Positions 62,145 to 63,222 of a stretch of 64,000 nt of DNA are shown piece after piece. Both the position numbers and the translations under genes were made by a program. Origin of the DNA: Escherichia coli (lineage in GTDB: Bacteria > Pseudomonadota > Gammaproteobacteria > Enterobacterales > Enterobacteriaceae). A model generated the notes under the pieces. It saw only the letters and a program-made list of their open reading frames with translations, searched no databases and was not told where the DNA came from. The number at the start of each line of letters is the position of its first letter. The stretch's first letter is position 1. Location of the stretch: assembly GCF_050320075.1 (NCBI RefSeq), contig NZ_CP190018.1; one strand, given 5' to 3'.

Positions 62145-63222
62145 TCACGGCAGGCGGTGGCGGGCTTGATAATAAGCCTGCCAGTGAGCTTCTTTATGTG
62201 TGGCGACACGCTGTTCGAAGTAACGGCGCAGACGCGCGCGATCTTCTTCGTTATCTTTAACGATGGTTCCGGCAATACAGTCCACCAGATCGGCTGGCTC
62301 ACCTGCGCGATTCGCTAAAAACCAGGCGCGGACGCCCACTGCGTGGGCCACGTTCACGGCTTCAGCGGTGGATATAATTGCCGTCAGAGTATCCATTGAC
62401 GTTTTCTTTTCGCCGTTGGCACGCAGATCGCGGAAGGTGCGGACCAGTAACTCCAGTACCGCGTCAGGCACTTTATGCGGAATACCGCTATGGGCCAGCA
62501 AACGCGCCGAAGCACTGGCGACCAGTTCCAGCTCCTGGGCGAAATCCATAATCGGAAAGACGGTTTCAAAATCGAAGCGACGCTTTAGCGCGGCACTCAT
62601 CTCATTGACGCCGCGATCGCGGGTATTGGCAGTGGCAATAATATTAAAGCCTTCCCGCGCATAGAGCTGACTGGCTTCACCGGTGAGTTCCGGCACCGTC
62701 ATCACCCTGTCAGAAAGCATACCTAACAGACAGTCTTGTACTTCCAGCGGTGTACGCGTTATCTCTTCAAAACGGACGATTTTGCCGTCGCGCATTCCCT
62801 GGTAAAGCGGGGCAGGGACCAGTGCTTCCGTAGACGGACCATGGTTGATAAGCAGGGCGTAGTTCCATTTGATCTTCAGTAGTAGATGCGCCGCCCTGGA
62901 TGGTTAACCCGGCATCGCCGCTAATAGCGGTTGCCAGTAATTCAGACAGGAGAGATTTTGCGGTGCCCGGTTCCCCCACCAACATCAAACCGCGCCCGGT
63001 GGCAAGAGTGACTAACATACGTTCGACAGCGGAGGGACTAATCACCACTTTACGGCTAATATTTTGCGCGCTATCGCCAAGGATAAAAGCACGGGCCGCA
63101 GGCAAACTTAACTGCCAACCGGGCGGGCAAGGTGCGTTATCATTTTGTTTTAATTTTGCCAGTTCATCGGCGTATAACACAGCAGCAGGCGGACGCTGCA
63201 GATGATTATTCTGCGGTGACAT
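62145..63222 (-). pseudogene. yehL: yehL (MoxR-like AAA+ ATPase) carrying a frameshift
   Basis: N-terminal frame (MSPQNNHLQ..., Walker A GEPGTAKS) ends in an off-frame tail; C-terminal frame (...[19 protein letters not shown]...) is +1 shifted; span is 1078 nt, not a multiple of 3. Confidence 0.75.

Follow-up and report, generated by a model that had tools for sequence, protein, structure and literature searches.

The yehL gene in the stretch of Escherichia coli chromosome analysed here (64,000 nucleotides, hereafter the window) carries an 11-bp deletion, and we consider it nearly certain that this allele has truly lost its function and is passed on vertically, making it a pseudogene of a MoxR-family AAA+ ATPase of the YehL subfamily. 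The deletion lies between the Walker A and Walker B motifs, where it removes four codons, three of them for invariant residues, and shifts the frame; a ribosome beginning at the usual yehL start would then make a 151-aa stub with Walker A only. The deletion and an amber codon in the neighboring yehM lie on one haplotype, which roughly 4% of complete E. coli genomes carry, those of the ST167 high-risk clone among them. The loss of yehL is already known, being flagged by RefSeq annotation, and is ordinary gene loss.

The pseudogene occupies positions 62145..63222 on the minus strand. From its ATG at 63222 to the normal stop at 62145 it spans 1078 nt, which is not divisible by three, compared with 1089 nt for the intact gene. 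An initial annotation, made from the sequence alone, had described a frameshifted MoxR-like AAA+ ATPase with two open reading frames (ORFs) in different frames, had taken 362 aa as the length of the intact protein, and had estimated a lesion of about 11 bp near 62866-62885. The two ORFs are as described, YehL of K-12 is indeed 362 aa long, and the alignment with an intact yehL that had been proposed as a check located one deletion of exactly 11 bp at 62866-62868. In this alignment, for which the references were K-12 and the nearest intact allele, that of ETEC1731, the single 11-nt gap corresponds to TCAAGTACGGC, and the sequence changes from GATCAAA[TCAAGTACGGC]TGGAAC to GATCAAATGGAAC. The junction (62866..62868, minus strand) can equally be written as loss of TCAAGTACGGC or of CAAGTACGGCT, its placement being ambiguous by 1 nt (T microhomology). 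A MAFFT alignment with 15 intact alleles placed the deletion at reference nt 356-366 and identified it as the sole indel in yehL. The initial annotation had also considered that an intact gene might have this same sequence and be annotated as two genes; the intact alleles are instead 11 nt longer and form one gene. No direct repeats flanking the deletion were found at the site, where microhomology is limited to 1 nt. An ATCAA-ATCAA tandem adjoins the site in intact alleles and was considered as a cause, but it cannot explain a loss of 11 bp.

The effect on the reading frames can be followed along the gene. Walker A (GEPGTAKS, aa 83-90; 62953..62976, minus strand) is retained in the native frame, which leaves the true sequence after ...ASTTEDQ. 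Codons I119-K120-Y121-G122 are lost with the deletion, the frame is shifted thereafter, and the first stop is codon 152 of 362, a TGA at 62767..62769 (minus strand). The predicted product of 151 aa comprises 118 native and 33 out-of-frame residues (MELRPAYQ...RQNRPF). A TAA at 62904..62906 (minus strand) in the downstream, correct C-terminal frame sets the upstream bound of the interval in which the two frames overlap. Walker B (VRFEE, residues 153-157 when yehL is intact; 62763..62777, minus strand) is out of frame with the start codon. Further downstream, a C-terminal ORF of 216 aa with its own ATG (Met146) extends over 62145-62795 on the minus strand and is without Walker A. The bracketing stops at 62904-62906 and 62767, the Walker A motif and the 1078-nt span that the initial annotation had reported are all present in the sequence.

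We compared the locus with 5,426 complete E. coli genomes. A megablast search with the region matched yehL in 5,223 of them and left 203 without a match. Among the matches, 220 records were at least 99% identical to the yehL region of the window and all the rest were at most 97.6% identical; the region spans 1212 nt in intact alleles (approximately 5,000 genomes) versus 1201 nt in the window. A 71-nt query centered on the deletion was then matched at 99% identity or more in 225 of the 5,426 genomes (about 4%), and a further 1,410 genomes matched it over a subject span of 81 nt with 80-90% identity, meaning that the 11 nt were present. No intermediates between the deleted class and the class longer by 11 nt were found among the matches to this query in the 5,426 genomes. 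Small indels can arise as errors of sequencing or assembly, and single-base indels found in other assemblies of this cluster (yehM of NCTC86, yehI of MIN10, yehI of UM146) could be such errors. That the yehL frameshift is an artefact of one record is nonetheless close to inconceivable: the lesion is 11 bp long, it lies outside any homopolymer, and the identical junction recurs in 225 complete genomes whose assemblies were made independently, by many laboratories and on many platforms. Because the exact junction is common to these genomes, ST167 strains among them, we regard the deletion as inherited and not as a sequencing error, and for the same reason the read-level confirmation suggested in the initial annotation is needless. 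The lesion is also derived, since yehL is uninterrupted in approximately 5,000 E. coli genomes, drawn from every lineage sampled, and in the orthologues of other genera.

RefSeq already lists the allele as a pseudogene in two strains, as B7R44_RS09030 in M217 (ST167) and as N4725_RS09340 in YZLc1-3, each under the description 'AAA family ATPase; frameshifted'. The yehL alleles of both strains are identical to that of the window, with no difference at the locus, and in both PGAP marks yehM with an 'internal stop' beside the frameshifted yehL. Other fully identical carriers are, like M217, listed as ST167 (PMC6392093, PMC7193042), namely Sanji, WCHEC005237, SCEC020007, 51008369SK1, AR435, AR_0149, AR_0150, AR_0151, and AR_0162. 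We also considered whether pseudogene copies could be told by their PGAP name, 'AAA family ATPase' instead of 'ATP-binding protein', and discarded the idea, as yehL is intact in H44, H51, and H107.

The position of the deletion within the protein leaves little of the ATPase. The AAA_5 domain (Pfam) covers residues 79-220 of intact YehL with an E-value of 1.9e-33, and the truncation at residue 118 falls within it. In an alignment of YehL orthologues from Lysobacter, Burkholderia, Variovorax, Chitinibacter, and Erwinia, I119, K120, and Y121 are invariant across proteins 75-86% identical and lie within a fully conserved block. Walker B (153-157), ATANT (200-204), KRRF (217-220), and the entire C-terminal half are absent from the 151-aa stub. 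Because Walker B and all later motifs are gone, the stub should be inactive as an ATPase, and it is a safe prediction from the sequence that it cannot hydrolyse ATP or form a MoxR-type ring. Against this, the 216-aa C-terminal ORF might be translated by reinitiation and have some activity. The locus is orthologous to E. coli yehL (95.6-100% nucleotide identity in 5,223 genomes, with the same neighbors yehK and yehM), but Walker A and Walker B are not encoded in one polypeptide, being in different frames with a stop between them. Judged by its sequence, the locus is a remnant of the YehL subfamily and not a functional member.

This reading would change if the two ORFs were joined by programmed +1 ribosomal frameshifting, or if they represented a split gene. 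There is a candidate slip site, CCG-UUU-UGA (window 62767-62775), in which UUU precedes the stop that closes the start-codon frame and a U follows, so a +1 slip of tRNA-Phe would enter the correct frame at FEE; the C-terminal ORF at 62145-62795, for its part, has an ATG of its own. We nevertheless consider this explanation very unlikely. Approximately 5,000 genomes and the distant orthologues encode one uninterrupted protein of about 362 aa, so that the two-ORF layout is unconserved, and the slip product would still be without I-K-Y-G and would have 31 conserved core residues (W123-V153) replaced by out-of-frame sequence. Neither half of a split gene would hold both Walker motifs, and the nonsense codon in yehM on the same haplotype is as decay predicts. 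Programmed frameshifting was rejected on the absence of the two-frame layout from all other alleles and distant orthologues compared, and we retain the interpretation of yehL as an inherited pseudogene.

The genes downstream of yehL are in mixed condition. The yehM gene (DUF5682; 59855..62134, minus strand) is full length and is a pseudogene by virtue of an internal amber, a TAG at 61463..61465 (minus strand) that replaces Ser224 of K-12 and other strains and changes ELPSLADA to ELP*LADA. On the same strand, yehP (58726..59862), whose start overlaps the end of yehM, encodes a VWA_CoxE protein (5e-71) and is intact, as is yehQ (56729..58729), which encodes a SWIM zinc-finger protein. The initial annotation was therefore right both about the yehM amber at 61463-61465 and in stating that the first two genes, yehL and yehM, are disrupted and yehP and yehQ intact, which the reading frames bear out. 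An exact 57-mer around the yehM TAG was found in 214 of the 5,426 genomes, that is, in 11 fewer than the 225 with the yehL junction, and the two lesions may thus not always co-occur. PK8275, which is one mismatch away from the 57-mer, has an intact cluster.

Among complete genomes, the closest to the window is that of YZLc1-3, isolated from chicken, in which yehL, yehM, and cirA (cirA::IS150) are all disrupted as they are in the window. Compared with M217, the last 9.9 kb of the window differ at one base; farther upstream, two IS1 copies and the IS150 in cirA are inserted, and a 14-kb segment has only 97.7% identity to that strain. Because the window differs from M217 in these places, the haplotype with both lesions is present on more than one chromosomal background.

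Comparisons beyond E. coli place these genes in a larger system. The order AAA_5, DUF5682, VWA_CoxE, SWIM-type is kept in Lysobacter capsici, Burkholderia cepacia, and a Variovorax contig, and in all three a giant protein adjoins the four genes. This protein has WGR and DUF4132 domains in Lysobacter capsici and Burkholderia cepacia, and the Variovorax protein has no Pfam match on record. The five-gene module is syntenic in these genomes, and their YehL orthologues are 73-76% identical to that of E. coli (about 75% between gamma- and betaproteobacteria), a degree of identity across proteobacterial classes that is unusual in an accessory ATPase still uncharacterised. Since gene order is conserved in such distant proteobacteria, we infer from the sequences that the Yeh genes work as one module. 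With YehL, YehM, YehP, YehQ, and the WGR/DUF4132 protein forming a conserved module, the loss of the first two would be expected to disable the whole of it in the window strain. The intact yehP and yehQ would probably be functionally orphaned, given the conservation of all five genes. They are probably also under-expressed, through polarity and lost translational coupling, because the start of yehP overlaps the end of the prematurely terminated yehM.

Of the seven subfamilies of MoxR AAA+ ATPases, one has YehL as its type member (PMC3893208). The K-12 gene (b2119) has the same position as that of the window (yehK-yehL-yehM-yehP-yehQ-yehR), 95.6% nucleotide identity over 1.2 kb, and the same AAA_5 domain; the window allele differs in being without the 11 bp and in having a product of 151 aa versus 362 aa. 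Pairs of MoxR AAA+ and VWA proteins have been described as a family (RavA-ViaA, NorQ-NorD, CbbQ-CbbO, and CoxD-CoxE; PMC3893208, PMC9976466). Like these chaperone pairs, the intact Yeh system joins an AAA_5 ATPase (YehL) and a VWA_CoxE protein (YehP) in one operon, and the window has this VWA partner gene, yehP, in the same operon as yehL. Unlike them, the module adds DUF5682, SWIM, and a WGR/DUF4132 giant protein and has no known client complex, and in the window its ATPase is predicted to be dead.

Searches for a function of the module returned little. YehH, YehI, YehK, YehL, YehM, YehP, and YehQ had no matches in PADLOC-DB 2.0 at E <= 0.01, and NCBIfam gave only weak, sub-threshold similarities to GvpN, MadB, and cobaltochelatase. 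The module is not a catalogued defence system, although a role in conflict remains compatible with the PADLOC result. The neighborhoods of the distant orthologues in Lysobacter, Burkholderia, and Variovorax did not have the appearance of defence islands, and SWIM, WGR, and DUF4132 are all absent from the text of an eLife 2020 article about MoxR-vWA conflict systems. A literature search found no functional study of yehL/M/P/Q or of a DUF4132/DUF5682 module, and returned only regulatory mentions and a deletion in Shigella. The yehH/molR promoter is activated by BglJ-RcsB (PMC3950696).

Lesions are frequent in this cluster. For a sample of 16 genomes, chosen to cover the range of identities, lesions were read straight from the sequences; 13 of the 16 had at least one lesion in yehH-yehQ, and at least 14 of these lesions were independent and at different positions. 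The yehM gene was hit by a stop at codon 224 (window), a 2-bp deletion (ETEC1731), a stop at codon 510 (O157:H7), a 7-bp deletion (UM146), and a 1-bp deletion (NCTC86). Lesions in yehI were stops at codon 495 (IH5, 20-16) and codon 782 (E24377A) and two single-base deletions (MIN10, UM146), and those in yehQ were stops at codon 615 (K-12) and codon 443 (IH5) and a 2-bp insertion (UM146). The yehK gene has a stop at codon 43 in 602687 and a 1-bp deletion common to UM146 and UPEC957C; yehH is broken in K-12 and O157:H7; and MDR_56 has an IS1-mediated deletion from yehH to yehK. Some of the single-base indels seen in one assembly may be assembly errors. Within the sample, the window had the only yehL lesion, its 11-bp deletion, and no yehP lesion was found in any of the 16 genomes. 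The pseudogenes of yehQ and yehH/molR in K-12 and of yehM in O157:H7 reflect the same type of event as yehL in the window (nonsense or small indel), with the gene and position differing by lineage. Outside the sample, one genome has an IS1 within yehL, and lineages 2 and 3 of Shigella sonnei have deleted yehM and yehL (PMC12795559). Two further features of the region concern yehH and its relatives: the middle of yehH (reference nt approximately 1587-1964) is unalignable between alleles by blastn and forms a hypervariable core, and some genomes have two or three tandem DUF4132 genes.

Intact alleles of the same genes are constrained. Their dN/dS is 0.032 for yehL, 0.076 for yehP, 0.114 for yehM, and 0.131 for yehQ, compared with 0.012-0.031 for the flanking yehR, yehS, and btsR, which are short genes. 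Values of dS are two to three times higher in the yeh genes (0.09-0.13) than in the flanking genes (0.03-0.05), an unusual diversity for one species. By this measure intact yehL is under strong purifying selection, as flanking core genes are, and this resemblance is our reason for regarding the intact gene as functional.

The default account of the yehL loss would be neutral decay or hitch-hiking. The pattern across the cluster is compatible with two accounts, relaxed selection on genes that are mostly silent and the recurrent, selected loss of a conditionally costly system. If the second were true, the Yeh module would be costly in some niche and its inactivation selected over neutral decay. 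In favor of this are the independent lesions in the sampled genomes, the 203 genomes without a yehL match, the IS1 inside one yehL, the parallel loss in S. sonnei, and the two hits (yehL deletion and yehM amber) on one haplotype, as well as the constraint on intact alleles (dN/dS 0.03-0.13), a pattern typical of conditionally costly systems. Against it, the silencing of yehL and yehM by H-NS/StpA under laboratory conditions also fits relaxed selection, the comparison comes from 16 genomes and short comparator genes, and yehL itself is seldom hit (1 of 16 sampled alleles). We therefore view an adaptive loss of yehL as the improbable alternative to neutral decay. A broader idea is that E. coli, possibly including ST167, repeatedly discards a conserved Yeh module that serves in stress or conflict and is costly under some conditions. 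The strong constraint, the repeated independent breakage, the raised dS, and the hypervariable core of yehH would together fit such a system, but we regard this idea as likewise improbable.

Taken alone, the loss of yehL matters little and amounts to a correct, routine call of a pseudogene, one flagged by RefSeq across hundreds of genomes. The 11-bp junction and the yehM amber do provide a clean haplotype marker for an E. coli group that includes ST167. For research on the YehL subfamily of MoxR proteins, strains of the ST167 type come with both yehL and yehM already mutated, and K-12 has defects of its own in yehQ and yehH. That a module under such strong conservation is broken again and again is suggestive and deserves a test at population scale; should the module be conditionally costly, its loss would be favored in some niches, possibly in the ST167 high-risk clone too.

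Several features of the window lie outside the yeh genes. Relative to M217 the window is a mosaic, with at least 99.9% identity over 1328-33238 and 54100-64000 and only 96.2-97.7% identity over 34007-50000 (approximately 16 kb, yeiS to yehY); the divergence of this last segment points to a recombined tract or to another background. Two insertions of 768 bp, the size of IS1, are present relative to M217 at approximately 9756-10523 and 33239-34006. The first replaces about 4.4 kb comprising psuK-psuG-psuT-yeiL and the 5' end of rihB, and YZLc1-3 has an IS1B beside a truncated rihB at the equivalent place. The cirA gene (18815-22240), which encodes a catecholate siderophore receptor, is split by IS150 at about 20168-21609 into an N-terminal ORF of 460 aa and a C-terminal ORF of 198 aa, and is arranged identically in YZLc1-3. 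Despite sharing the yeh haplotype, M217 has a small frameshift in cirA instead of IS150, and because the lesions differ, cirA was inactivated independently in M217 and in YZLc1-3. Loss of cirA is linked to reduced cefiderocol susceptibility.

A type I toxin-antitoxin system, zor-orz, is present as a single copy in the spacer between yehK and yehL (window 63334-63744). Its orzO (63334-63409, minus strand) matches the OrzO-P sRNA family (Rfam RF02083) at 101 bits versus a 60-bit threshold and terminates 112 nt upstream of the start of yehL, with which it shares a strand. The zorO ORF (63655-63744, plus strand) encodes 29 aa (MDTLTQKLTVLIAVLELLVALLRLIDLLK), and divergent, overlapping sigma-70-like promoters lie between the two genes at 63423-63473. 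The spacer is 307 bp long in K-12, 576 bp in the window, and about 1180-1240 bp in O157, ETEC1731, and E24377A, and this variation in length suggests that strains have 0, 1, or 2 copies of zor-orz.
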